A stretch of DNA of 64,000 nt from a bacterium (GTDB lineage Bacteria > Patescibacteriota > Microgenomatia > Curtissbacterales > GWA2-41-24): assembly GCA_021813945.1 (NCBI GenBank), contig JAKAJD010000001.1:560412-624411 (forward strand). The letters are read 5' to 3'. Positions 17,432 to 52,386 of this stretch are shown here, one piece after another. The notes beneath the pieces are model-generated. The model did no database searches, was not told the origin of the DNA, and saw only the letters and a list, made by a program, of their open reading frames with translations. Both the position numbers and the translations under genes were made by a program. Within the stretch, counting starts at the first letter, position 1, and each line of letters opens with the position of its first letter.

Positions 17432-17504
17432 GCCGCTGTAGCTCAATGGATAGAGCAGTCCCGTCCTAAGGGAAAGGTTGGAGGTTCGACTCCTCTCAGC
17501 GGTA
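17432..17504 (+). tRNA. tRNA-Arg (anticodon CCT)
   Basis: Manual cloverleaf: 7-bp acceptor stem (G1-U72), D-arm GCTC/GAGC, anticodon loop GTCCTAA, T-loop TTCGACT, 5-nt variable loop. One 27:43 mismatch. No encoded CCA. Confidence 0.75.
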
Positions 17505-17629: not shown

Positions 17630-17702
17630 CGGGGTGTGGCGCAGTTGGTAGCGCGCGTCGTTCGGGACGGCGAGGCCGTCGGTTCGAATCCGACCACCCC
17701 GA
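17630..17702 (+). tRNA. tRNA-Pro (anticodon CGG)
   Basis: Manual cloverleaf: acceptor CGGGGTG/CACCCCG with C1:G72 (typical of bacterial tRNA-Pro), D-arm GCGC/GCGC, anticodon loop TTCGGGA, T-arm GTCGG-TTCGAAT-CCGAC. Confidence 0.85.
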
Positions 17703-25359: not shown

Positions 25360-26264
25360 CCAAATCTTGGACTCACATAAGGCTTAATAACTAGACTCAG
25401 CCTTACGAAAAGTTCCAAAGCAAAATAGCATAAAGCATATGCTGGTGATTTCACAAATCCCAAGACTATCGCTCTCATTTTGTAGCTTCTTGGAATTTTA
25501 TAAACCTCTAATACACCGTCTCCAAAATACTTTTCCAACCTGTGTTTTGCTGATAAATTTCGTCTATGTTGAAGTAAGTAATCAAAAAAGGTGCTCGGAT
25601 TCCTAAAATAAACAAAGGCATTTTCAGCAAACACAAAACCCAAACCAGCCTCTCTGTTTTTAACATAAACAAAATCGTCTGTTCCATAAAGCCCCTGCGG
25701 CATCCTCAAACAGGTAACAAGCTCATGCGACATGGCCGAAATAGACCCTTGATGGTTGTGAACGTTATCACCATTGTTTAAGTTTCGCTTGGTCGAATGC
25801 CATATGTAATCGCCCATTTTGTGAACTTTTTCGATAAAAGATTTGGGATTATCGGCTATCCGAAATCCGGCAACCAAACCAACACCTTTTGCAAAACCGG
25901 AAACGAGGCGGGAAATAACCTTATCACTTGAAAGTATTACGTCACCGTCAAATTTTATACAAACATCACTCTTAGATCTCAAAAAAACTTCGTTCAAACG
26001 TGCTGCCAACCCCATCCTTTGGCTATATTCTATAAGTTCAATCTCAGAATTTCTAAACGACTTTACTTTAGAAACCGTCGAATCGGTACTCCCGTCAGAT
26101 ACAACAATAATTTTCTTAATATAGAAATTTTCTCCCTTCTGGCTTATGATACTTTTCAAAAGTCGTTCAATATTTTCATCCTCATTGTAAGCACAAATTA
26201 CAACATCTACCGTTTTTTTATTCTTCATATAACCACCCTTTTTGAAGATTGAGCGATTTCCCAA
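25323..26264 (-). CDS. Glycosyltransferase family 2
   Basis: VDVVICAYNEDENIERLL ... VVSDGSTDSTV GT2 signature. Confidence 0.8.
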   Translation of the reverse strand: MGNRSIFKKGGYMKNKKTVDVVICAYNEDENIERLLKSIISQKGENFYIKKIIVVSDGSTDSTVSKVKSFRNSEIELIEYSQRMGLAARLNEVFLRSKSDVCIKFDGDVILSSDKVISRLVSGFAKGVGLVAGFRIADNPKSFIEKVHKMGDYIWHSTKRNLNNGDNVHNHQGSISAMSHELVTCLRMPQGLYGTDDFVYVKNREAGLGFVFAENAFVYFRNPSTFFDYLLQHRRNLSAKHRLEKYFGDGVLEVYKIPRSYKMRAIVLGFVKSPAYALCYFALELFVRLSLVIKPYVSPRFGWELSKTTKSLV

Positions 26265-28063
26265 CCTGTCTTATTAGCAAATCTCCTTTTTGCGAAAATT
26301 TCACCATACCAAAAAACCAGGGAGTAGCCTAAAAATGAAACTGGCGAACTCAACAGAAAACTTGCAACCATCCTCACTCGGTCAGATATTCCAATACGAA
26401 AGGCTGAAATCACACTTTCTTTTTTGCCAAATTTTTTAATCAAAAGTTCCCTGCCTCCCATAAAACGCTGGCTCTGCTTAAAATGGTCCGCAATATTCGA
26501 GGGTGATCTGAAAATAACCCTGGCATTTTCACTGAATACGAATTTGAAACCCTTCTTCCGCGCAAAAAGATATGAAAAAGAGTCTTCAGGAAGCAATGTC
26601 GGCCAAACAATCAGTTTATAAAATTTCTTTGAAAAAGCCCTGGCCCTTCCGTGACAAAGATATAAATTATCCCCTCCCGACATTCTCAAATACATTTTGT
26701 TCTTAAAATAATGACTATCCGAAATAATTTTCTCAAAAAAAGTCACTGGCCTTGCAGACACAGTATTTGCTCCCACCAAACCTACGTTAGGATCCGAAAG
26801 AATGGGTAAAATCAGATTATCCAAAAAATCCCGTTTCACAGGCAAAACGTCACCATCCAAAATGACTAAAATATCTCCTTTGGCAGCTTTGGTAATTTGA
26901 TTCTGAGCTTTTTCCACACCCAACCTTATGTTATTTTCAATAACCTTAATCCTGGAATCTTTTTTTGAACGACAAATCTGGACAGTTCCGTCATCTGAAC
27001 CATCGGAAACAATAATTATCTCCAAAAGTTTCCCGTGAACTAGCTTCTGTTTTAAAATTCTGTCTATCAACAAACCAATATTCGCTTCCTCATTATATGC
27101 TGGGATTCCAACCGACACGGTGGCATTTAAATCAACAGCCCCCGGCCCGGAGACAAGTTCTTTTGAAGATCCGTAGATTTCGTGCACAGCGGAAAAAGCT
27201 GACCTTCTTAAAACGGCTAGCCTGTTTGCTATAATTTCCGCAAAAAACAAAACAGTCCAAAAGGGATTCTCAGCAAAATTGGAAATTAACGACCTAGCCG
27301 CCAGAAGAGGAGGAATCTTATATTCCGAGTCCAAAATCTCTTTAGGAAAATATTTTTCAAGAGCTTTTTTACCACTCAAAAATTTTTTTACCTGACGCTT
27401 CCGATCGGAAAAGCTGCCGACATTGCGCATGTAAGCCTGAGCTTTAGGATTTCTGGCCATGGAAAATCCAAGTTGTTTTAATCTGAAATATGTATACGCA
27501 TCCTCTGGAACATTTATCGGCCACTCCAGTTTTTTCGAAAAAGCCCTCGAAATAACCTTCATTGAATGCCCGCCTGATGTGTAAACGTTTAGCCCTTTTT
27601 TCCAAGTTGAAAAAAGCTTCAATTTAACTAAAAGCCCATGATAGAGTACTCTTTCATAAAATTTCTTTGGTTTAAGTGGTACAGGTCTTCCGATAACCAT
27701 GCCCAAATTGGAAATATTAGAATCATAAAAAGGCTTTACCAACTCCGAAAGCGTTTTATCCGAAACAGGCAGAATATCACCCTCGATAATTGCCAGCAAA
27801 TCTCCGCGAAAAAGCTGTAAGAGCTGGTTCTGTCTTGCCTGTTGGCCTAACCTTGTCCTGCCTTCTATAAGAGTAATCAAAGGATTATTGATGCTTTTAA
27901 CTAACTCGCAAGTCGAATCATAACTACCATCGGAAACCACAATTATTTCTTCTAGCTTAAATCCTTCTTGCTTCTGTAAAAGCAAGACCTCGATTAATTG
28001 GCAAATGTTTTTTTCTTCGTTAAAAACCGGAATCCCAACAGTTAGTGTAAGTTTTTTCTTCAT
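26225..28063 (-). CDS. Tandem double-GT2 glycosyltransferase (two GT2 domains in one polypeptide)
   Basis: Two copies of the GIPxxNEExNI ... VVSDGSxDxT signature, at about aa 10 and aa 310. Confidence 0.8.
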   Translation of the reverse strand: MKKKLTLTVGIPVFNEEKNICQLIEVLLLQKQEGFKLEEIIVVSDGSYDSTCELVKSINNPLITLIEGRTRLGQQARQNQLLQLFRGDLLAIIEGDILPVSDKTLSELVKPFYDSNISNLGMVIGRPVPLKPKKFYERVLYHGLLVKLKLFSTWKKGLNVYTSGGHSMKVISRAFSKKLEWPINVPEDAYTYFRLKQLGFSMARNPKAQAYMRNVGSFSDRKRQVKKFLSGKKALEKYFPKEILDSEYKIPPLLAARSLISNFAENPFWTVLFFAEIIANRLAVLRRSAFSAVHEIYGSSKELVSGPGAVDLNATVSVGIPAYNEEANIGLLIDRILKQKLVHGKLLEIIIVSDGSDDGTVQICRSKKDSRIKVIENNIRLGVEKAQNQITKAAKGDILVILDGDVLPVKRDFLDNLILPILSDPNVGLVGANTVSARPVTFFEKIISDSHYFKNKMYLRMSGGDNLYLCHGRARAFSKKFYKLIVWPTLLPEDSFSYLFARKKGFKFVFSENARVIFRSPSNIADHFKQSQRFMGGRELLIKKFGKKESVISAFRIGISDRVRMVASFLLSSPVSFLGYSLVFWYGEIFAKRRFANKTGWEIAQSSKRVVI

Positions 28064-38722: not shown

Positions 38723-40354
38723 CTAATTGACAAGTAGGCTTGATGTAGTCTGGGAGTTGCCGATATCATAGGTATAACTCGTCTTGGCAACGTTTGTAAC
38801 AGCGGATTTATAGGTTCCGGTTTGCGACGATCGCAACCTGAATGTGATAGTCCCGTCCGTTGCTGTCGTGCCGGAACCGGAAGATTTACCCCCGGAAGGT
38901 TGTGTCACCATAACTGAAACTGTAGCGCCAGAAACCGGATTGCCGCCGGCATCCAGAACCGTCACCTTTGTGTAAACATTTCGAGTCCAAAACGATTTTG
39001 TGAACCACATCGAGATATTAGAAACGTGCATCACCAAACTCGGAACAGGTGTTGGCGTCGGTGTCGGAGTCGGGCTGGGTGTGGGTGTTGGTGTAGGAGT
39101 TGGGGTTGGGGTAGGTGTTGGACTTGGGGTAGGTGTGGGTGTCGGACTTGGAGCCGGTGATCCTCCACCAACTGCCCTGTACGCATTAATGCGCCCATGT
39201 GCCCATAAAGTACCAGTCCCACCAATTGAGTCGGCAGTATTTTCAATCTGGGCCTTCACGCAACTATTGGTAGAACATAAACCGCTTGCCCAAACCAAAG
39301 CTGCAAGGCCGGCAACATGAGGCGTCGCCATCGACGTTCCCGAAAGGGTTCCATAGTCTGTTTGACCAATCGAATTTGTATGGGTCGGCAAAGTCGAAAA
39401 AATGTTAACTCCTGGCGCCGCTACGTCCACCCAGGATCCATAGCTTGACCAGCTCGGCTTAACATCATTACTATCCGTCGCCGCAACCGACATCACATTA
39501 GGGTAGAAAGCCGGGTAAACCGGTGAAGAGTTGCCGTTGTTGCCGGCTGCCGCAACCACCACTACTCCGTGACTCCAGGCATAACTGACAGCATTGGCCA
39601 AAGTCGAAGAGCTGCTAGAACCGCCAAGACTCATGCTTATTACCTTGGCACCGTTATCCGTTGCCCAAATAATCCCATTGGCAACCCAAGAGTAGTATCC
39701 CGAACCGTTATCATCCAGAACCTTAACATTCATAAGCGAAGACTTGTAGCCGACTCCGGCAACACCAACATTGTTATTGGTCACAGCCGCTGCAATTCCG
39801 GCAACATGAGTGCCGTGTCCGTAAAGGTCATCAACGGTTGAGCTGGTTGTGAAGTTTTGGTTAGCCACAATTTTGGAAGACACATCCGGATGGTTCTGGT
39901 CAATACCGGTATCCAAAATGGCAATGTTAACCGCAGAACTGCCGGTATTTAAATCCCAAGCGCTTTGCGCACTGGTGTTTGCAGCCTGGATTTTAAACAT
40001 TCCCCACTGCTGTGAAAGATAAGTATCATTTGTAGCTGTCATAGCTTTGGCTACAAAATCCGGTTCCGCAAATTCAACGGACGGCAATTTCAAAAATGTA
40101 GAAGAAAATCCGTCTTCCAAACCTTGTGGAACTTCAAGCGCCAGCACATTAATTTTATCCAGCCTATCTTTTACCCTCACCCCAAACCTGGAAACGGTTG
40201 AATTTATTTCGTCCTGTGATGTGCCCATCCTAAACTTAACCAGGACTCTTCCTGTGGTGTGCTCGCCAAAATTCGGCCCGGAAGCCAAGGTATTAGCTGA
40301 AAGAGGCAGAAACAAAAGGAGTGAAATTAGGCAAGATGTAAAAAATCTTCTCAT
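38723..40354 (-). CDS. Subtilisin-like serine protease (peptidase S8) with a signal and propeptide, a PT-repeat linker and a C-terminal beta domain
   Basis: Catalytic triad motifs ILDTGID (Asp), [11 protein letters not shown] (His), [11 protein letters not shown] (Ser); (PT)n linker encoded by a GGTGTN repeat at 39038-39150. Confidence 0.9.
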
Positions 40355-44767: not shown

Positions 44768-46045
44768 CTATACTTTCAGAAGCTTTTGGAACCTATCTTC
44801 ATCCTTAAATGGTCCTATCACAGCAAGATTAAGTTTGCTGTCTGTCACTAAAAACTGGGCCAGTCGATGAACATCATCTGCCGTAACTCCATCTATTAAC
44901 TTCAAATACTCGCTTAAGGATCTTACCCTTCCCTCCATCAGCTCGTCCGACCCGTAGGAAAGTGCGACCGTTCTGGAATCTTCCCACGAAAGAATCACCT
45001 TACCCTTGATATACTCTTTTGCTTTTTTCAACTCCTTTTCGCTTACTTTTTCACTGGCAACTTCGCCAAATTCCGCCAAAATCACCTTGATTGCTTCATC
45101 AATTCGCTTTAAATCCACTCCTGCCGAAGCCACCAAAGTACCCGTATCGTGGTACGATTCGTGATCCGCCCGAATGTAATAACAAAGACCGCGCTTTTCG
45201 CGAACGTTTATAAAAAGCCGCGAAGACATCCCGCCGCCCAAAATTGTTCCCAAAACAGCAGCCGTATAACGGTCCGGATCTGTAAGTCTTAACCCCCTAA
45301 AGCCAACTACTAAATGAGCCTGGTCTGTCTTTTTATAAGAAATGAGGCAACCCGGTTTTCTTTGATCTTCCTCTACCGGCAAAAATCCGCTTACCGCTTT
45401 TTCTTCTTCTTTGCCGAAATGCTCCGAAATGGCATGATAAGCCTTGTCACGGTCAAAATTACCGGCAACTGCAACAACCATGTTGTTTGGCGCATAGCGC
45501 TCGTTGATGTATTCTTTAAAATCCTTGCGGGTAATTTTGCGAATAACATCTTTTAAGCCTCCGATATCCCAACCCAGCGGCTGGTCTCCCCACAAAAGGT
45601 GTTCGTATATTTCGGAAACCCGCCTCATCGGCGTGTCCTCGTACATGTTCAGTTCCTCAATAATTACCCCGCGTTCTTTTTCAATTTCCGCCTCGTCAAA
45701 TTTTGAATTCCAAACCATATCGGAAAGCATGTCCAAAGCAAGGGGCAAATGCTTAGAAGCAGCTTTAATGTGGTAAGCCGTTACCTCTTTGGAAGTAAAA
45801 GCGTTGTAATCCGCGCCAATTTCGTCTAGGGCGTGTGAAATATCAGAAGCCGTCGGCCTTCTTTTTGTGCCTTTAAAAAACATATGCTCCAGAAAGTGGG
45901 AAATCCCGTTGGTTTCTTTTCGTTCATATCTGGATCCGGCACCGCACATGACAATTGCCGTTGCCGAAAGTACGGAAGAAAGCGGGGCAAAAATTACCCT
46001 TAGCCCGTTTTTTAATGTGACTTTTTCAAAATCAGATGGTTCCAT
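44768..46045 (-). CDS. M16 family zinc peptidase (pitrilysin/insulinase-like)
   Basis: Inverted zincin motif HFLEHMFFKGT (HxxEH) near the N-terminus; 425 aa. Confidence 0.85.
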   Translation of the reverse strand: MEPSDFEKVTLKNGLRVIFAPLSSVLSATAIVMCGAGSRYERKETNGISHFLEHMFFKGTKRRPTASDISHALDEIGADYNAFTSKEVTAYHIKAASKHLPLALDMLSDMVWNSKFDEAEIEKERGVIIEELNMYEDTPMRRVSEIYEHLLWGDQPLGWDIGGLKDVIRKITRKDFKEYINERYAPNNMVVAVAGNFDRDKAYHAISEHFGKEEEKAVSGFLPVEEDQRKPGCLISYKKTDQAHLVVGFRGLRLTDPDRYTAAVLGTILGGGMSSRLFINVREKRGLCYYIRADHESYHDTGTLVASAGVDLKRIDEAIKVILAEFGEVASEKVSEKELKKAKEYIKGKVILSWEDSRTVALSYGSDELMEGRVRSLSEYLKLIDGVTADDVHRLAQFLVTDSKLNLAVIGPFKDEDRFQKLLKV

Positions 46046-47025: not shown

Positions 47026-50000
47026 CTACTCTTCGGGTGCCACCAGTCCCAGAACCGGAAACACAATGCTCGTCTTTGGCTGGTAATAGGTCCCTCCGGA
47101 AACGTTATAGACAACATACGGGAAGACCAAACTTACAGCCGGCACGACCCCGCCGAAAAACACCGCTTCGTCGGAATAATCACTTGGCAAAACCGCGCTT
47201 CCAGAATACGCATTATCTCCCGGAAAAATCTTGGAAATCGCGCTTTGATATTGGGAACTGCTGCTGTAGGAATTCTCCTGATTCAAATATATAAACGAAG
47301 GTGAAATCGCATCCTCCATCAAATACGAATAGACATAATTGTTGTGGTTTTTGCCGGTAGGAGTTTGGTATTTGCTGAATATATTGTTGCCGGAAATTAC
47401 AACGGCGCCGGATTTTCCCATTTCAACAGAAGATACCGTATCGCCTGTTGAAAGGTCCTTAAACGAACGTTTTAGGTTTATGTCGATAACCTTTGCCTCA
47501 CTTGCTATGCTTTCGTTTTTGAGGCTCAAAGATTTTTTAACAGAGTTAAAAGAAAACGCCTTATTTCCTGAATCTGGGGGAACTTGCTTTTGGTCGTAGT
47601 TAGTCTCCAAAATCGTAGTGTAAACAGGTATATCGCCGCTCGTTTTTACTTCAACGGAAACTTTGCCGTCTTTATAATTTTTCGCAAGAATTGTTTTACC
47701 AAACTGGTTATACTCTTTATCCTGCTTCGCCTCGTAGACTGTTTTTCCATTAACCGCCACGCTTATTTTGGGCTCTTCTATATACAAATTATTTCTTTGA
47801 GCATACATCAAACCGGCAAGCAGGCTAAACAGCGACTGAGAATACCCGGCTTGACTAAACGATAAGCCCTTTATCGCCCGATTGGCATCCTCGTTTGTGC
47901 CTTTTTCGATCATCGCAAGTGCCGGCAAAACAGAAGCAAACTGAGTATCACCGTCCCAAACGTACCTGTCGTCTGCACTATTAAGAGCCAGATTACGCAA
48001 TGTCGAAAGGGCCGCCTTATCACCATTCATAGCCCTTATTGCCACGGATTCGGGCGTATTTTTATAAATTGGATCACTCACTTCATCGCCCAAAACCCAT
48101 TGCCTTGCAATTTTTTCTTCCGGCGTGCCGGACCCTACTTGTACCTCGAAATTCTGCGCCAAACCTTGCGGAAGATTAGCAATATTCAAATTACTAATCG
48201 GTTTATTGGCCTTGCCATTAAGAGATTTTACGTACTGCTTCGTCGCTTCCACGACAGAAGGCATGTTGCTAACCTCATCAATCATATGGAGCCCTGCAGC
48301 CTGGTCCAAACCCGCAGCAAGCCAAAGATTAACAACTTGCTGCGATTCCTGACTATAATTGGCATTGACATTCCAATGATCTCCGGACCGAATTTCCAAA
48401 AGATGAGAAACAGTTTCCAGAAAAGAATTTCTTAATTTTGCATACTGGTAAGACGTTGGCGACACTAAACCGTCGCGGGTCATAGCCATTGCATTAGAAT
48501 ACACGTATAAATTTCGCCCCACCTCGCTCGAATCATAACCAAAAGTTGGATAGTTGTTATGAAAAAGAGCACTAACTACATTTGGTGCAACCCACATATC
48601 CATTTTGTTGAAATCTAAATCGGGGTAACTCGCTTCATATGAAATCTTTTTTGAACCCTCAAAAGATTGCCAAAAAGAATTAATGTTTCCTTGCGGCAAA
48701 ATTGGCCGTTTGGAAGAAACGGAATCAAGTGTATTTCCCTGCTTGTCTTTGGCTTCAAATGTAAAAGACAGATCCTTGCTTTGCCGTCCGGCATCTAGAG
48801 GAAATTTGACCTCTCCAAAACCACTGCTTGCCACCTTAAGCGGCTGACTTTTGGAAAACCCAATCTCTTTTATTGTGAGCGAAACGTCTGCCTCAACATC
48901 TTGCTGCGTTGAATTCTGGACAAGTGCGGAAACAACCGGCTGATCAGCTTGATAGTAAAAATTGGAAACAACCGGAATAATGTTGATGCCCTTTTGCGAA
49001 ATAAACTCGCCGGTAGTCTGGCCGAATTGGGAATTTTTGGTGTTGGAAAATACCTGTGCTGTAAATGTCGTTAAATTATCCGGAAGCTTAAATGTTACAG
49101 TCGCCCGCCCGCTGGCATCAGTTTGTAGGTGGGGATTCCAATAAGCGGTGTCGGCAAAATTTTCTCTCGGGCCCATTCCCTTTTCGTTGTGAACATAAAA
49201 CCCATTGGCAAAAAATGTGTGGTACTCAAAGGTCGTTAAGTTGTAAACGACAAACTGCCCGACATGCTTCTCTATCGATATAATCTTGACAGAATTACCG
49301 TTTTCATCCAAAAGTGTATCACCAATTTCGGCCTCCCCGGCTTCATGCCAAGCATTGTTTAAAAATATGCGGTGAACCCAGGTCACATTAAGAGTGCCGT
49401 TAATCGTTAAATAGTCGGAAACTGCATGCCGGAAAGTCTTGGAAACCGTATCGGGAACGAGCGAAGATAAACGCTCGGAAGAACGCGTCTTTATCTTGTC
49501 TCCAATTCTAATATCTTCAATATTGCGTGCTGTGCCGTCTTCCATCAAAATTTTCGTCCCGGCTAAAAAGCAGCCTCCGCCCCCACCGCCCATGAAGGCT
49601 TCTACACCCGTAGTAGAACTAAAACTCGAAACGGCAGAGGTTGGCGTGTAATTGTAAAAATTGTCATAAATATTTTCGTTGAACTGCCCGATTTGCAAAA
49701 TCGAAGCATCGATAACCGAAAGCGAATTGTCGGCAGACACCGGATTTCCAGCCTCATCCTGGGTTGTAATCGCTGCCGAAACCGAATCTCCAGGTTTATA
49801 AATCTGCTTATCAAAAGCGATTTTGGTCGTTAATTTGCGACTCCCTTTGTCAACTAAAAGATTTATGTGGTTCGAAATAACCTGGCCGGCGTTAACGGTA
49901 AACACATCTACCCCAATTCCTCGCCCAAAACTCTCTACAATCTCAATTGGTAAATTCCAACTGCCGCTTCCCAAGTTATTTTTCGAAAGCGAAACGATGT

Positions 50001-52386
50001 TTGAAGAAGTTCCGCTGTTTTGCGTAATAACCACTATTGCATCATTGACCCCAAAAGTTGCCGAAACACCAATATTGGCTGTTTCGCCGACTTTATATAA
50101 GTTTTTTGAGGAAGTTAAAGTTATTGCGTCTTGTGGCTTGTTATAGGTGTATTGCTGCACTTCTCCTACATAAACCTGCGCCCGGCCCGTTACCGTATTT
50201 CCCCTAGAATCACCCGCTTGCGCAGCAACTTCATAGCTTCCTTTGCCAAGATTAGCAAAGGCAAATGAAGCAGTTCCGTCTGCACCGGAAACGGCGTTCT
50301 GGCTGGCAATCAGTTGCTTATCGCTGTAACTTACAACCTTATAAAGGGAAATCACCAAAGGTTTTGCCGCTACTACCTTTCTTGGAGTGTTGTGGTCCAA
50401 AACCGCTATATTGCCGCTTATTCCCTTTTCTGTATCGCCGCTTAAATTATCAACAAAAAGCGCAAATTCACCTCTGTGAATAAGCTTTGCTATTTTGCCA
50501 AATGAAGGGGTTGCGCCAATATTGGGTGTCACCTCAAGCGTTGCTATCTGGCTTAGCTCAAATTTGTCGGCAAGCTTAGTTGAAAATGTGATCTGTGCTG
50601 TCCCTTTTTCGTCAAATTTCCCATTTCCCGTTATAAGCTCTTGGCCTGCACCGTAATAACCGCTTACAACTCCGCCAACATCCTCGGCCGTTCTGTCTTT
50701 TATTTCTGTAAAATCCGTCAAAAGGACCCTGTAGGTGAATTCGATATTGGAAAGCGGTTGGCCAAAATTAGTCTTGGCAGTGACATTAACATGCGAGTCG
50801 TCACCGCTCACATACTCTTTTTCCAAAGCTGTTGCCGAAATGTCCATATCGGGCTTTCTGTAAGCCTGAACCGACAAGGGCAGCGAATCGATTTGCTGAT
50901 AATCTCCTTTATCATTTTTTACAGAAAGAATTATCTGCGGATAATTCCCCTCAACCATCGAGGGCAAATCTATGTCGGCATAAACGGTGCCGTTTTCGTC
51001 TGCCTCCAAGGCTGTGTAATTATCTTGGTCTTGCAAATTGTAATCGAGCTGAAGTTTGGCAAAGAAAGCTCCCTTGGCAACGCTAAAATCACCATTTTCC
51101 CTCTTTCTTAAAACTGCCTTATAGTGAACTTTATCTCCGGCCCGATAAACCGGCCTGTCAGAATAAGAAAAGACCTGATAATTTGCTCGGCCATATTGTG
51201 CATAATAGTAAACCTTCGTAAAAGTGACCGCTATGTCGCCATTGGAATGGGTTATCACAAAGTCCACGGCATCCTCACCATGCGCGCTTTTGGCAATTCC
51301 ATCTGCGCCCGTGGTAACCTTATCGACCAAAACCGGTGGCCCTTTAACCTTATACAATTCTGCTTCGACTCCGCTTATACTTTTGCCGGTATTTTGCTCA
51401 GACGCCCAAACGTAGGTGTTGTTTGCATCGTTAAACACCTGATTGATGTGCCCAGATGCAACCACGAACAAATCTTCACTCCAGCTATCGTTTTCTAGTT
51501 TTACGTAATATATGCCGGGCTTGGGAAAGTTATCTGCAGGTAGACTTAGGTTGTACGAATTAGCTCCACTACTTTGCTTTATAACACGCTGCATTTGCTT
51601 CATTGCCAAACTTGCCGCATCCTCAAAATAATAAAGGGAATTTTTGCCTCCCTTGTAGCTAAAATATTCAATCAGTTGCTTTTCATTTGCTTGGCCTATG
51701 CTTACATTTACCGACGTTCCAATATAGGAATTCATGCTATTTTCCCCGCCGCTGGAATAGCTATTAAACGAAACCTCAACAGGTTTGGCAGAATCTGTGG
51801 CAATCAACTTCTTGTTTGTTTGTAGTGTAAAATCCGGATTTTGCTTTGTCCTGAAGGCAACTGTAATATCTTCCGGCAATTTCTGTTTATCGGTAGAATA
51901 GAAACTTTTATCAATAGTTATCGTATAAACCGAGTTGTAGGAAAAGTTGGCCGGCAAACCGTCTGATTTTGTTTTGTTGGATGAAAAATAAACGACTTGG
52001 CCATTTTTTTCTAAATGCCATGATCCGGAAACTTCGGGGGTCAAATGGAAATAATTGCCAAGATTTGCTTCGGTTACACCGATCGGTTTGGAAAAAACAA
52101 AGGTCGGCTGCCCTACAACCGCAAATGAATCGCTTTGGTCTTCAGGTGAACTTTCCTTGAGTTCGAATTTTTGGGCTAGGGTCTTATGGCTTTTTTTCGC
52201 CAATCTGCTTTGGGCAAACCATAAACCGCCTCCCAAAAGGCCCAAAAACACCAATATTAAAACTAACAGTTTAATGTGCTTTCGAATTTTAGAAAAAAGC
52301 CTGGAAATTTTACTTTTCGACTGGGGCACCTCCACCGCCGGTCCGGAAATCGGCGGGGGCGGATCAACAGGCAGGCTGGGGTCCAT
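47026..52386 (-). CDS. Membrane-anchored alpha-2-macroglobulin-like giant protein (1786 aa) with an embedded Hint (intein-like/BIL) domain at the bait-region position and no thioester motif
   Basis: N-terminal TM; MG-like repeats; RENFADTAYWNPHLQTDASGRATVTFKLPDNLTTF matches the A2M FPETWLW/VPDSITTW hallmark; the poly-Gly plus CFLAGTKILMEDG ... FYVHN module lies immediately before it. Confidence 0.55.
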   Translation of the reverse strand: MDPSLPVDPPPPISGPAVEVPQSKSKISRLFSKIRKHIKLLVLILVFLGLLGGGLWFAQSRLAKKSHKTLAQKFELKESSPEDQSDSFAVVGQPTFVFSKPIGVTEANLGNYFHLTPEVSGSWHLEKNGQVVYFSSNKTKSDGLPANFSYNSVYTITIDKSFYSTDKQKLPEDITVAFRTKQNPDFTLQTNKKLIATDSAKPVEVSFNSYSSGGENSMNSYIGTSVNVSIGQANEKQLIEYFSYKGGKNSLYYFEDAASLAMKQMQRVIKQSSGANSYNLSLPADNFPKPGIYYVKLENDSWSEDLFVVASGHINQVFNDANNTYVWASEQNTGKSISGVEAELYKVKGPPVLVDKVTTGADGIAKSAHGEDAVDFVITHSNGDIAVTFTKVYYYAQYGRANYQVFSYSDRPVYRAGDKVHYKAVLRKRENGDFSVAKGAFFAKLQLDYNLQDQDNYTALEADENGTVYADIDLPSMVEGNYPQIILSVKNDKGDYQQIDSLPLSVQAYRKPDMDISATALEKEYVSGDDSHVNVTAKTNFGQPLSNIEFTYRVLLTDFTEIKDRTAEDVGGVVSGYYGAGQELITGNGKFDEKGTAQITFSTKLADKFELSQIATLEVTPNIGATPSFGKIAKLIHRGEFALFVDNLSGDTEKGISGNIAVLDHNTPRKVVAAKPLVISLYKVVSYSDKQLIASQNAVSGADGTASFAFANLGKGSYEVAAQAGDSRGNTVTGRAQVYVGEVQQYTYNKPQDAITLTSSKNLYKVGETANIGVSATFGVNDAIVVITQNSGTSSNIVSLSKNNLGSGSWNLPIEIVESFGRGIGVDVFTVNAGQVISNHINLLVDKGSRKLTTKIAFDKQIYKPGDSVSAAITTQDEAGNPVSADNSLSVIDASILQIGQFNENIYDNFYNYTPTSAVSSFSSTTGVEAFMGGGGGGCFLAGTKILMEDGTARNIEDIRIGDKIKTRSSERLSSLVPDTVSKTFRHAVSDYLTINGTLNVTWVHRIFLNNAWHEAGEAEIGDTLLDENGNSVKIISIEKHVGQFVVYNLTTFEYHTFFANGFYVHNEKGMGPRENFADTAYWNPHLQTDASGRATVTFKLPDNLTTFTAQVFSNTKNSQFGQTTGEFISQKGINIIPVVSNFYYQADQPVVSALVQNSTQQDVEADVSLTIKEIGFSKSQPLKVASSGFGEVKFPLDAGRQSKDLSFTFEAKDKQGNTLDSVSSKRPILPQGNINSFWQSFEGSKKISYEASYPDLDFNKMDMWVAPNVVSALFHNNYPTFGYDSSEVGRNLYVYSNAMAMTRDGLVSPTSYQYAKLRNSFLETVSHLLEIRSGDHWNVNANYSQESQQVVNLWLAAGLDQAAGLHMIDEVSNMPSVVEATKQYVKSLNGKANKPISNLNIANLPQGLAQNFEVQVGSGTPEEKIARQWVLGDEVSDPIYKNTPESVAIRAMNGDKAALSTLRNLALNSADDRYVWDGDTQFASVLPALAMIEKGTNEDANRAIKGLSFSQAGYSQSLFSLLAGLMYAQRNNLYIEEPKISVAVNGKTVYEAKQDKEYNQFGKTILAKNYKDGKVSVEVKTSGDIPVYTTILETNYDQKQVPPDSGNKAFSFNSVKKSLSLKNESIASEAKVIDINLKRSFKDLSTGDTVSSVEMGKSGAVVISGNNIFSKYQTPTGKNHNNYVYSYLMEDAISPSFIYLNQENSYSSSSQYQSAISKIFPGDNAYSGSAVLPSDYSDEAVFFGGVVPAVSLVFPYVVYNVSGGTYYQPKTSIVFPVLGLVAPEE
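49186..49572 (-). other. Hint domain (mini-intein-like, about 129 aa) running from Cys939 (GGGGGG-CFLAGTKIL) to His-Asn1067 (FEYHTFFANGFYVHN). The +1 residue is Glu, so canonical splicing is not possible and the domain is BIL-like.
   Basis: Intein block A (C-F-x-x-G-T-x-I-L) and block G (V-Y-N-L-T ... H-N) recognised by eye; no homing-endonuclease domain. Confidence 0.6.

Follow-up and report, generated by a model that had tools for sequence, protein, structure and literature searches.

A giant surface protein of the alpha-2-macroglobulin (A2M) superfamily, encoded in the genome of a bacterium of the candidate phyla radiation (CPR), carries a Hint domain of the autocatalytic, intein-like type inside its bait loop. 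The gene lies on the minus strand of a 64,000-nucleotide stretch of DNA from a member of the Microgenomatia (GenBank assembly GCA_021813945.1, contig JAKAJD010000001.1, positions 560,412 to 624,411), which was analysed as a whole and is called the window below, its product being called the window protein. The A2M+Hint architecture was found CPR-wide across the representatives examined. The best reading is that the Hint domain is stably inserted in the flexible, Gly-rich bait loop and has been inherited throughout the CPR, and that after export it would excise itself, with re-ligation of the bait by an amine.

Domain organisation and superfamily membership

The window protein was confirmed as a member of the A2M/thioester-containing protein (TEP) superfamily. 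It contains an array of macroglobulin (MG) domains with the A2M_BRD and A2M (PF00207) signatures, and the Pfam matches to MG2, A2M_BRD and A2M all exceed the gathering scores (Table 1). A profile built from the family finds E. coli YfhM and Salmonella A2M in the MG2 region and, by sequence, reaches YfhM/ECAM, SaA2M, human A2M and C3/C4/C5 in the PDB. With the whole protein as a single-sequence phmmer query against the PDB, the Hint domain was the sole region matched, A2M, C3 and C5 being reached only with the family profile. The AlphaFold2 model of residues 600–1786 (pLDDT 78.5) consists of beta sandwiches with a compact domain at residues 939–1067 between disordered linkers (residues 920–936 and 1069–1078), followed by further beta sandwiches, a helical domain of about 260 residues and C-terminal beta domains. 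A Foldseek search with this model returned human A2ML1 (E 3.3e-38), Salmonella A2M (1.6e-35) and ECAM (2.2e-34) over alignments of about 1300 columns, with C5, CD109 and TEP1 also among the matches and with 10–13% identity to the solved structures. The modelled fold is thus like that of solved A2M, C3 and TEP proteins, including a helical thioester domain (TED) and C-terminal beta domains; by analogy, residues 1540–1786 would correspond to the return of a CUB-like domain plus a C-terminal MG-like domain.

The A2M_BRD match, which forms beta strands and then two short helices in the model, makes up the N-terminal portion of the MG domain that carries the bait, numbered MG6 in eukaryotes and MG8 in bacteria. 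Downstream of the Hint domain the PF00207 match begins at model position 1, and in the family profile the segment after the Hint domain aligns with residues 717–860 of a 1441-residue A2M (7S62). The stretch RENFADTAYWNP...TVTFKLPDNLTTF is present from Arg1074; its TAYWNP... is the equivalent of FPETWLW, and LPDNLTTF that of VPDSITTW. As in other members of the superfamily, a flexible bait region stands in the bait-carrying MG domain directly before the FPETWLW-type strand, and here the same loop also carries the Hint domain.

The open reading frame starts with ATG, and the protein has a single hydrophobic segment (residues 39–58) behind a basic N-terminus, an anchor feature with an equivalent in the relatives. 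By the positive-inside rule the window protein is predicted to be membrane-anchored with its N-terminus inside and its bulk extracellular. A preliminary description of the gene, made from its letters alone, had read it as a giant A2M-like surface protein, and the Pfam matches to MG2, A2M_BRD and A2M uphold this, the anchor being read from sequence; the motifs that it quoted are all present, at Cys939, Asn1067, Glu1068 and Arg1074, and the strand, which it had not given, is minus. The profile searches that it had proposed found significant A2M-family matches on both sides of the Hint domain, which itself passes with PT-HINT and fails with the Intein_splicing and Hint models.

The CxEQ motif in the TED, the mark of type I or classical A2Ms, is absent from the window protein, as had been noted from the start. 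Where relatives read GYPYGC[VT]EQT, the alignment with CxEQ-bearing relatives gives FGYDSS...EVGRNLY, and Pfam TED found no match in the window protein. The window protein is an A2M of the thioester-less class; protease trapping after bait cleavage is its putative function, by analogy.

Insertion of the Hint domain into the bait

Six glycines are followed by CFLAGTKILMEDG at Cys939, and the Hint domain closes with HTFFANGFYVHN at Asn1067, Glu1068 being the +1 residue. By the Pfam boundaries the domain follows the bait-region domain (A2M_BRD) and precedes the strand (PF00207) with which A2Ms continue after the bait, and the model shows it as an insertion between disordered linkers. Its location at the bait position, as first proposed, therefore stands. 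The further proposal that the Hint domain replaces the bait does not, since disordered linkers persist on both sides of what is an insertion. When the Hint domain was deleted in silico, the flanks read FMGGGGGG/EKGMGPRENFADTAYW (the slash marks the junction, here and below), like the uninterrupted baits of Hint-less A2Ms. These Hint-less bacterial proteins, the next-best homologues at about 21–25% identity and one of them labelled Anaerolineales, bear a linker of 24–50 residues at the bait site that is often Gly-rich, for example AKGGGGGGASGLEIREDFPDIAFW, KGGGGGEDEGMVRGDFRDTAYW or GGGGGGEGPRSDFPDAAYW; the linker of the window protein minus the Hint domain measures 29 residues, inside that range. 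Because the flanks match the Gly-run baits of Hint-less A2Ms, the Hint domain interrupts the bait and does not replace it.

A K-GGGGG(G) run serves as bait in many of the Hint-less relatives (P0025–P0050; P0027 is the one labelled Anaerolineales). Poly-Gly is a substrate of glycyl-glycine endopeptidases of the lysostaphin/M23 type, and it is pure speculation that A2Ms with poly-Gly baits might be tuned to trap cell-wall-lytic enzymes.

The idea that the Hint domain substitutes for the lost thioester was likewise abandoned. In 103 of 155 A2M+Hint representatives, the set on which all conservation counts below are based, CxEQ is kept about 220 residues downstream of the Hint domain, within GYPYGC[VT]EQT, and some Hint-bearing relatives, such as P0023, have Pfam TED and bMG10 matches. 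Loss of the thioester is a secondary trait of the subclade of the window protein. It has a parallel in the thioester-less type II bacterial A2Ms, which are a recognised class (PMC5764988).

Type of Hint domain

The Hint domain is of the bacterial intein-like (BIL)/PT-HINT type, an A-type BIL, and not a classical intein, because of its PDB matches, the sub-threshold scores of the intein, Hog and Hom_end models, the glutamate at +1 and the absence of space for an endonuclease domain in its 129 residues. The best PDB sequence matches were the Clostridium thermocellum BIL 2LWY (E 2.4e-10), the Streptomyces protein 8W20 (E 1.5e-9) and Tetrahymena BUBL BIL2; BILs were also the top structural neighbours, BIL2 being the nearest. 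PT-HINT (PF07591) matched residues 954–1067 with E 1.1e-9 and 39.2 bits against a cutoff of 27.7 and was the sole Hint-family Pfam model above threshold, Intein_splicing, Hint, Hom_end_hint and Hog falling below theirs, while the NCBIfam model intein_Cterm (TIGR01443) scored 17.7 bits against a cutoff of 15.6.

Block A begins with Cys939, block B contains Thr1002 and His1005, block F is VYNL at 1047–1050, and block G ends in His1066-Asn1067. As in A-type BILs, the N-terminal cysteine, the block B TxxH and the C-terminal His-Asn are combined with a +1 residue that is no nucleophile. The first account of the domain thus proved sound in that it is BIL-like (PT-HINT above its cutoff, matches to 2LWY and BIL2), lacks an endonuclease and, with Cys1, TxxH and His-Asn in place, has a glutamate at +1 that rules out classical class 1 splicing. 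It lies, as BILs do, in a variable region of a surface protein, here the bait loop; atypical for a BIL is that host protein and site are conserved over a superphylum.

Several other classes were considered and rejected. A class 1 intein is incompatible with the non-nucleophilic +1 residue, the missing endonuclease, the sub-threshold intein models and the presence of the Hint domain in all relatives. The behaviour of a mobile intein, with sporadic presence, intein-less alleles and a homing endonuclease, was not seen, the Hint domain being present in 24/24 close homologues and in 150 of the 150 best clusters. The placement of a PT-HINT in a polymorphic toxin does not apply either, as the Hint domain is followed by A2M, TED-like and beta domains with no C-terminal toxin. 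Nor is it a Hedgehog-type Hog domain, for it ends in His-Asn and passes directly into an MG domain, with no sterol-recognition region.

Conservation of catalytic and junction residues

All residues expected to take part in Hint chemistry are conserved in the A2M+Hint representatives. At the N-terminal junction, Gly-1 and Cys1 are present in 155/155, Gly-2 in 149/155 and Phe2 in 153/155; within the domain, the block B His is found in 155/155 and the Thr in 154/155, and the block F VYNL is near-invariant; the terminal His-Asn is again present in 155/155. The +1 residue is Asp in 56, Gln in 49, Glu in 33, Gly in 8 and Ser in 4 proteins, so that Asp, Gln and Glu make up 138 of 155, and it is followed by Lys+2 (153/155), Gly+3 (143/155) and the residue corresponding to Arg1074 (155/155). 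Mean pairwise identity is 0.44 for the Hint domain, equal to that of the best host segment, and 0.25–0.29 elsewhere in the protein. Cys939 is the sole cysteine of the 1786 residues. In relatives with the thioester the median cysteine count is two, in keeping with one at Cys1 of the Hint domain and one in CxEQ. This conservation pattern is, in all probability, the signature of a chemically active domain, and the invariant catalytic residues suggest that the domain would perform autocatalytic cleavage or splicing.

Lys+2 and Gly+3 are absent from the baits of Hint-less A2Ms, and HN/K or HN/xK, with GGGG/CF before the domain, occurs also in stand-alone and tandem Hint relatives; Lys+2 and Gly+3 are therefore part of the Hint chemistry and not of the macroglobulin. 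The nature of the +1 residue was also seen to track the thioester state, Gln being nearly confined to thioester-bearing proteins (44 vs 3) and Asp or Glu occurring in both groups, an association that could reflect phylogeny or chemistry.

Distribution and inheritance

The preliminary description knew of no other such architecture, and the searches showed that it is not singular to the window protein. In a word-indexed search, PT-HINT was present at the equivalent place in all 23 closest relatives (P0002–P0024), one of which is labelled Candidatus Levybacteria. Residues 740–1180 were used as query in an exhaustive HMMER scan of 1.84 billion representatives of 50%-identity clusters, which returned 369 clusters at E <= 1e-30; in the best 150 of these 369 the Hint domain was present in 150/150, mostly as one unbroken BRD-Hint-A2M match in proteins of about 1650–1850 residues. 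A chance origin of the arrangement is ruled out by this recurrence in all 150 best matches. No Hint-less orthologue occurred among the best 150 clusters, a result to be read with the fact that the queries contained the Hint domain, so that Hint-less CPR A2Ms could have escaped. A word-indexed search with the Hint domain alone found 3 small proteins only; it is uninformative on distribution and is superseded by the exhaustive scan.

At least 120 GTDB species genomes match a single junction pattern, and the 80 listed are mostly CPR, including, among others, Parcubacteria, Microgenomates, Peregrinibacteria, Peribacteria, Gracilibacteria and Saccharibacteria, as well as Levy-, Gottesman-, Roizman-, Shapiro-, Uhr-, Magasanik-, Falkow-, Moran- and Zambryski-bacteria; the generic 'Gammaproteobacteria' labels on several of the listed metagenome-assembled genomes are regarded as unreliable. 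A one-off fusion or an assembly artefact was rejected, since the identical protein stands on 10 contigs from several samples and the architecture is found in hundreds of clusters.

There is no compositional signal of a recent insertion, the GC content of the Hint domain (0.426) being close to that of the gene (0.436; window 43.8%, a value consistent with a CPR genome). Hint and host distances are correlated at 0.34; for a control segment of about the same length the value is 0.84. Nearest neighbours agree between Hint domain and host in 59/135 cases, vs 75/135 for the control. Identities of the Hint domain are almost flat over clades (0.42–0.51), whereas host segments are clearly clade-structured; either saturation around a rigid core or lateral exchange could explain this.

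Among close relatives of the Hint domain there are also tandem arrays of 3–5 copies and small stand-alone secreted proteins (P0152, 3399 aa; P0208, 662 aa; P0239, 2780 aa; P0105, 202 aa; P0104, 232 aa). The linkers between copies shrink to KGGGGG or KPHI in some of them, with junctions of the form GGGG/CF...HN/K.

Proposed mechanism and alternatives

Export followed by self-excision of the Hint domain and amine-mediated re-ligation of the bait is the reading that we favour, with a probability of roughly 0.45. After export and folding, Cys939 would attack the carbonyl of Gly938, and an N-to-S acyl shift assisted by Thr1002 and His1005 would give a Gly-thioester; Asn1067 would cyclise with the help of His1066 and so cut the C-terminal junction. 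With a non-nucleophilic +1 residue, the two halves, which would be held adjacent by giving strands to one and the same MG sandwich, would be re-joined by an amine attacking the Gly-thioester. Two amines are candidates: the alpha-amine freed on Glu1068, as has been proposed for A-type BILs, and the epsilon-amine on the side chain of the near-invariant Lys1069, which would give an isopeptide bond as reported for Tetrahymena BUBL BIL2. Once the Hint domain is released, the short, Gly-rich bait would be covalently closed again, and the product would be a normal macroglobulin, spring-loaded for triggering by foreign proteases. We infer all three elements of this proposal, namely that the reactions occur, that their setting is extracellular and that ligation prevails over plain cleavage.

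The argument for ligation starts from the thioester. In A2Ms the disordered bait loses its tether when it is cut, and the conformational change that this drives exposes or activates the thioester (PMC4498604); a family that keeps the thioester should therefore hold its bait covalently closed until challenged, and since the bait must stay closed in the thioester-bearing relatives, re-ligation or conditional cleavage is favoured over constitutive self-cleavage. Both junction chemistries are invariant, and this would favour ligation, for plain N- or C-terminal cleavage needs only one of them; the co-conservation of Lys+2 and Gly+3 with the Hint domain would count in the same direction. Precedents exist in BIL2, where the epsilon-amine of a lysine is reported to perform the ligation, giving an isopeptide bond (PMC8616854), and, going by the title of the 2LWY paper as it appears in the references of PMC7664689, in BIL trans-splicing 'without nucleophilic side chains'.

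Several points weigh against this reading. A purely parasitic element is normally lost in some lineages, and the presence of the Hint domain in 150/150 best clusters suggests a host function beyond simple maturation. The argument from thioester latency applies to the relatives only, the window protein having no thioester to protect. That Lys1069 or the +1 amine could reach Gly938 is an assumption. BILs without a +1 nucleophile were reported to be mainly cleaved, not spliced (PMC7664689), and A-type BILs are stated to be unable to ligate their flanks (PMC7765530).

These last reports bear directly on the self-triggering idea of the preliminary description, in which the Hint domain would cut one or both junctions without re-joining them, severing the bait and producing an activated or two-chain form with no need of a foreign protease. 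Convertase removal of the anaphylatoxin domain (ANA) from C3 and furin processing to beta/alpha chains would be its analogues. A constitutive cut in the bait, however, would discharge the thioester kept by 103/155 representatives and leave a spent trap; two junction chemistries together with Lys+2/Gly+3 exceed the needs of a single cut, and the flanks resemble an ordinary bait interrupted by an insertion. We consider self-cleavage as a trigger less probable than re-ligation but a serious rival: the catalytic residues are invariant, the retention of the domain throughout the CPR points to a function at the level of the host, BILs that lack a +1 nucleophile mainly cleave (PMC7664689, PMC7765530) and the Hint domain sits precisely where cleavage sets off the conformational change of A2Ms (PMC4498604). 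A bolder and less probable variant, which we would call unlikely, has the Hint domain supply both the convertase and the thioester: by cutting itself conditionally at the bait/ANA position it would fire the macroglobulin without a foreign protease, and a reactive acyl group would then couple the CPR surface protein covalently to lysines or further nucleophiles of a target, be it a protease or a host-cell surface. Most relatives would use the TED CxEQ thioester for this, thioester-less members the Gly938 thioester made by the Hint domain; in a milder form, re-closure through a Gly938-Lys1069 isopeptide bond would yield a branched macroglobulin.

The Gly938 thioester might also react with a lysine on a second protein, for instance a protease or a protein of the host-cell surface, which would couple the anchored N-terminal half to it, much as BUBL BIL2 dispenses a ubiquitin-like domain, and, in thioester-less members such as the window protein, would constitute the sole covalent trap. 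Against such intermolecular conjugation, which is quite improbable in our view, the near-invariant Lys+2 provides a competing intramolecular nucleophile, the TED thioester already serves covalent capture in most relatives, and the proposal is pure inference with no known target; for it speak the Gly-Gly end of the N-extein, as in ubiquitin-like proteins, Cys939 as the only cysteine, the joining of the N-extein to lysines of varied substrates by BIL2, the nearest structural neighbour (PMC8616854), and the normal capture of protease lysines by A2M thioesters (PMC4498604). A catalytically silent Hint domain, a structural plug or binding module that never cleaves while proteases attack the linkers on either side, is the least probable of these readings and very hard to credit. 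The flanking linkers are indeed disordered and non-processing Hint-fold domains exist, but the nucleophile, the block B His and the His-Asn are kept in 155/155, the Thr in 154/155 and VYNL near-invariantly amid about 25% identity, and a lone conserved cysteine in an otherwise Cys-free extracellular protein is hard to explain without chemistry.

Comparison with known systems

Bacterial A2Ms fall into type I, with the thioester CLEQ (ECAM/YfhM, SaA2M), and type II, without a thioester (P. aeruginosa MagD/YfaS-like). The window protein shares with them the MG array, the bait-region domain inside one MG domain, the helical TED-like domain and the C-terminal beta domain; lacking CxEQ it resembles type II, whereas most of its Hint-bearing relatives, with CxEQ, resemble type I. 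It differs from both in having a folded Hint domain in the bait loop, and its N-terminal transmembrane anchor differs from the lipoprotein ECAM/YfhM, which is said to be periplasmic. In complement C3/C4/C5, too, an additional folded domain splits the bait-carrying MG domain in two; this equivalence of sites is drawn from the architecture of C3, and in complement the removal of the inserted ANA is the activation step. The insert of the window protein is, unlike ANA, an autocatalytic-type Hint domain, would need no external convertase or furin and belongs to a bacterial protein.

Among the Hint domains, PT-HINTs of polymorphic toxins (MafB, CdiA-type; the Streptomyces umbrella-toxin protein 8W20) share the PF07591 match. 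In those toxins the PT-HINT immediately precedes a C-terminal toxin domain, whose release is attributed to it, whereas the window Hint domain is internal and followed by MG, TED and C-terminal MG domains with no toxin domain. Class 1 mini-inteins differ in their +1 Cys, Ser or Thr (Ser in 4/155 here) and in their location at a conserved site of an essential cytoplasmic protein; neither their endonuclease nor the sterol-recognition region of Hedgehog Hog is present, and the respective Pfam models remained sub-threshold. Tetrahymena thermophila BUBL1 BIL2 (6TMM/6Y75) is eukaryotic, lies between ubiquitin-like domains and gives a conjugate with other proteins as its product; we know of no link between BIL2 and macroglobulins. 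According to PMC7765530, BILs are patchily distributed and sit in hypervariable parts of proteins that are not conserved. Unlike the C. thermocellum BIL (2LWY), Hint domains of the window type occupy one fixed site in one family across a superphylum, with an invariant Gly-Gly before them (the -2 Gly at the frequency given above) and a near-invariant Lys-Gly at +2/+3.

Genomic neighbourhood

In the window, the A2M-Hint gene is preceded by genes for a Rieske protein and ArgRS and followed by genes for a metallophosphoesterase and an M16 peptidase. Neither pbpC (PBP1c), whose operon with yfhM characterises type I, nor another informative neighbour was found in the window. In the CPR loci (L005–L084), a Memo-like gene (PF01875, about 300 aa, with a lipobox) is located directly downstream in 56/80, with a median gap of -3 bp (for example L065, 8361–9269; L036, 2121–2690), and an ECF (extracytoplasmic function) sigma-70 gene is located upstream in 26/80; the Memo-like and ECF sigma genes are absent from the window. 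The adjacency of Memo does not correlate with the presence of the thioester, and the locus of P0023 (L004) has a Memo+PGA_cap fusion gene upstream. This partnership with Memo and ECF sigma genes differs from the yfhM-pbpC pairing of other bacteria.

Other genes of the window are included in Table 1. The subtilase, the M16 peptidase and the dockerin protein near the A2M gene are likely extracytoplasmic, and the open reading frames of 1276, 1058 and 733 residues may encode further CPR-specific surface proteins. The large glycosyltransferase fusion belongs to a run of glycosyltransferase genes that includes 26225–28063.

Table 1. Features of the A2M-Hint gene and of other genes in the window (ORF, open reading frame; GT, glycosyltransferase).
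Feature	Residues	Position in window	Strand	Evidence or remark
A2M-superfamily surface protein with internal Hint domain, whole gene	1786 aa	47026..52386 (stop codon included)	minus	ORF list and translation, Pfam
N-terminal hydrophobic anchor (KLLVLILVFLGLLGGGLWFA), Lys/Arg-rich segment before it	39–58	52213..52272	minus	sequence reading
MG2 macroglobulin domain	405–477	50956..51174	minus	Pfam PF01835, E 2.4e-15
A2M_BRD bait-region domain	755–898	49693..50124	minus	Pfam PF07703, E 4.6e-11
N-side bait linker (SSFSSTTGVEAFMGGGGGG), ends in Gly-Gly at -2/-1	920–938	49573..49629	minus	pLDDT <50 in both models
Hint (BIL-type) putative autoprocessing domain, 129 aa	939–1067	49186..49572	minus	motifs and PT-HINT
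C-side flank (EKGMGPRENFAD), +1 Glu, +2 Lys, +3 Gly, Arg1074	1068–1079	49150..49185	minus	residues 1069–1078 disordered in model
A2M domain PF00207, restart of bait-carrying MG domain and next MG domain	1080–1170	48877..49149	minus	Pfam, E 3e-13
Helical TED-like domain, thioester motif lost	~1270–1531	47794..48579	minus	helix bundle in model, Foldseek, alignment with CxEQ-bearing relatives
C-terminal beta-rich region	1540–1786	47029..47769	minus	beta strands in model, global Foldseek matches; boundaries approximate
M16 (insulinase-type) peptidase		44768–46045	minus	
411-aa protein with C-terminal dockerin	411 aa	54468–55703	minus	
Subtilase (S8), fervidolysin-type prodomain and Big_1		38723–40354	minus	
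GT fusion: two GT2, Polysacc_synt (flippase-like), GT4	1549 aa	29921–34570	minus	
ORF	1276 aa	3158–6988	minus	no Pfam match at E <= 1e-4
ORF	1058 aa	55922–59098	minus	no Pfam match at E <= 1e-3
ORF	733 aa	34723–36924	minus	no Pfam match at E <= 1e-4
tRNA genes (two), sole Rfam matches of the window		17432–17504, 17630–17702	plus	

Novelty and significance

A full-text literature search that also covered CPR names, with most subscription journals outside its reach, found no description of a macroglobulin combined with a Hint, intein-like or PT-HINT domain. Both components are known, and their combination is undescribed in the literature searched; automatic Pfam annotations of such proteins already stand in domain databases.

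What defines A2M, C3 and TEP proteins is that proteolysis from outside triggers them at one loop. An autocatalytic-type Hint domain fixed in that very loop suggests another way of maturing or firing this ancient trap, and the only cysteines kept by A2M+Hint proteins appear to be reactive ones. For the intein field, the domain would be among the rare BILs that have kept a single site in a conserved protein over a very long evolutionary time, and a testable candidate for amine- or lysine-mediated ligation. In work on the CPR, membrane proteins with A2M domains have been noted as a putative defence against host proteases (PMC8080830). The present finding singles out, among the small number of large surface proteins that are widely conserved in these episymbionts, one that its conserved residues mark as chemically reactive, and a reactive surface protein of this kind would bear on the defence of CPR bacteria against their hosts or on their attachment to them.

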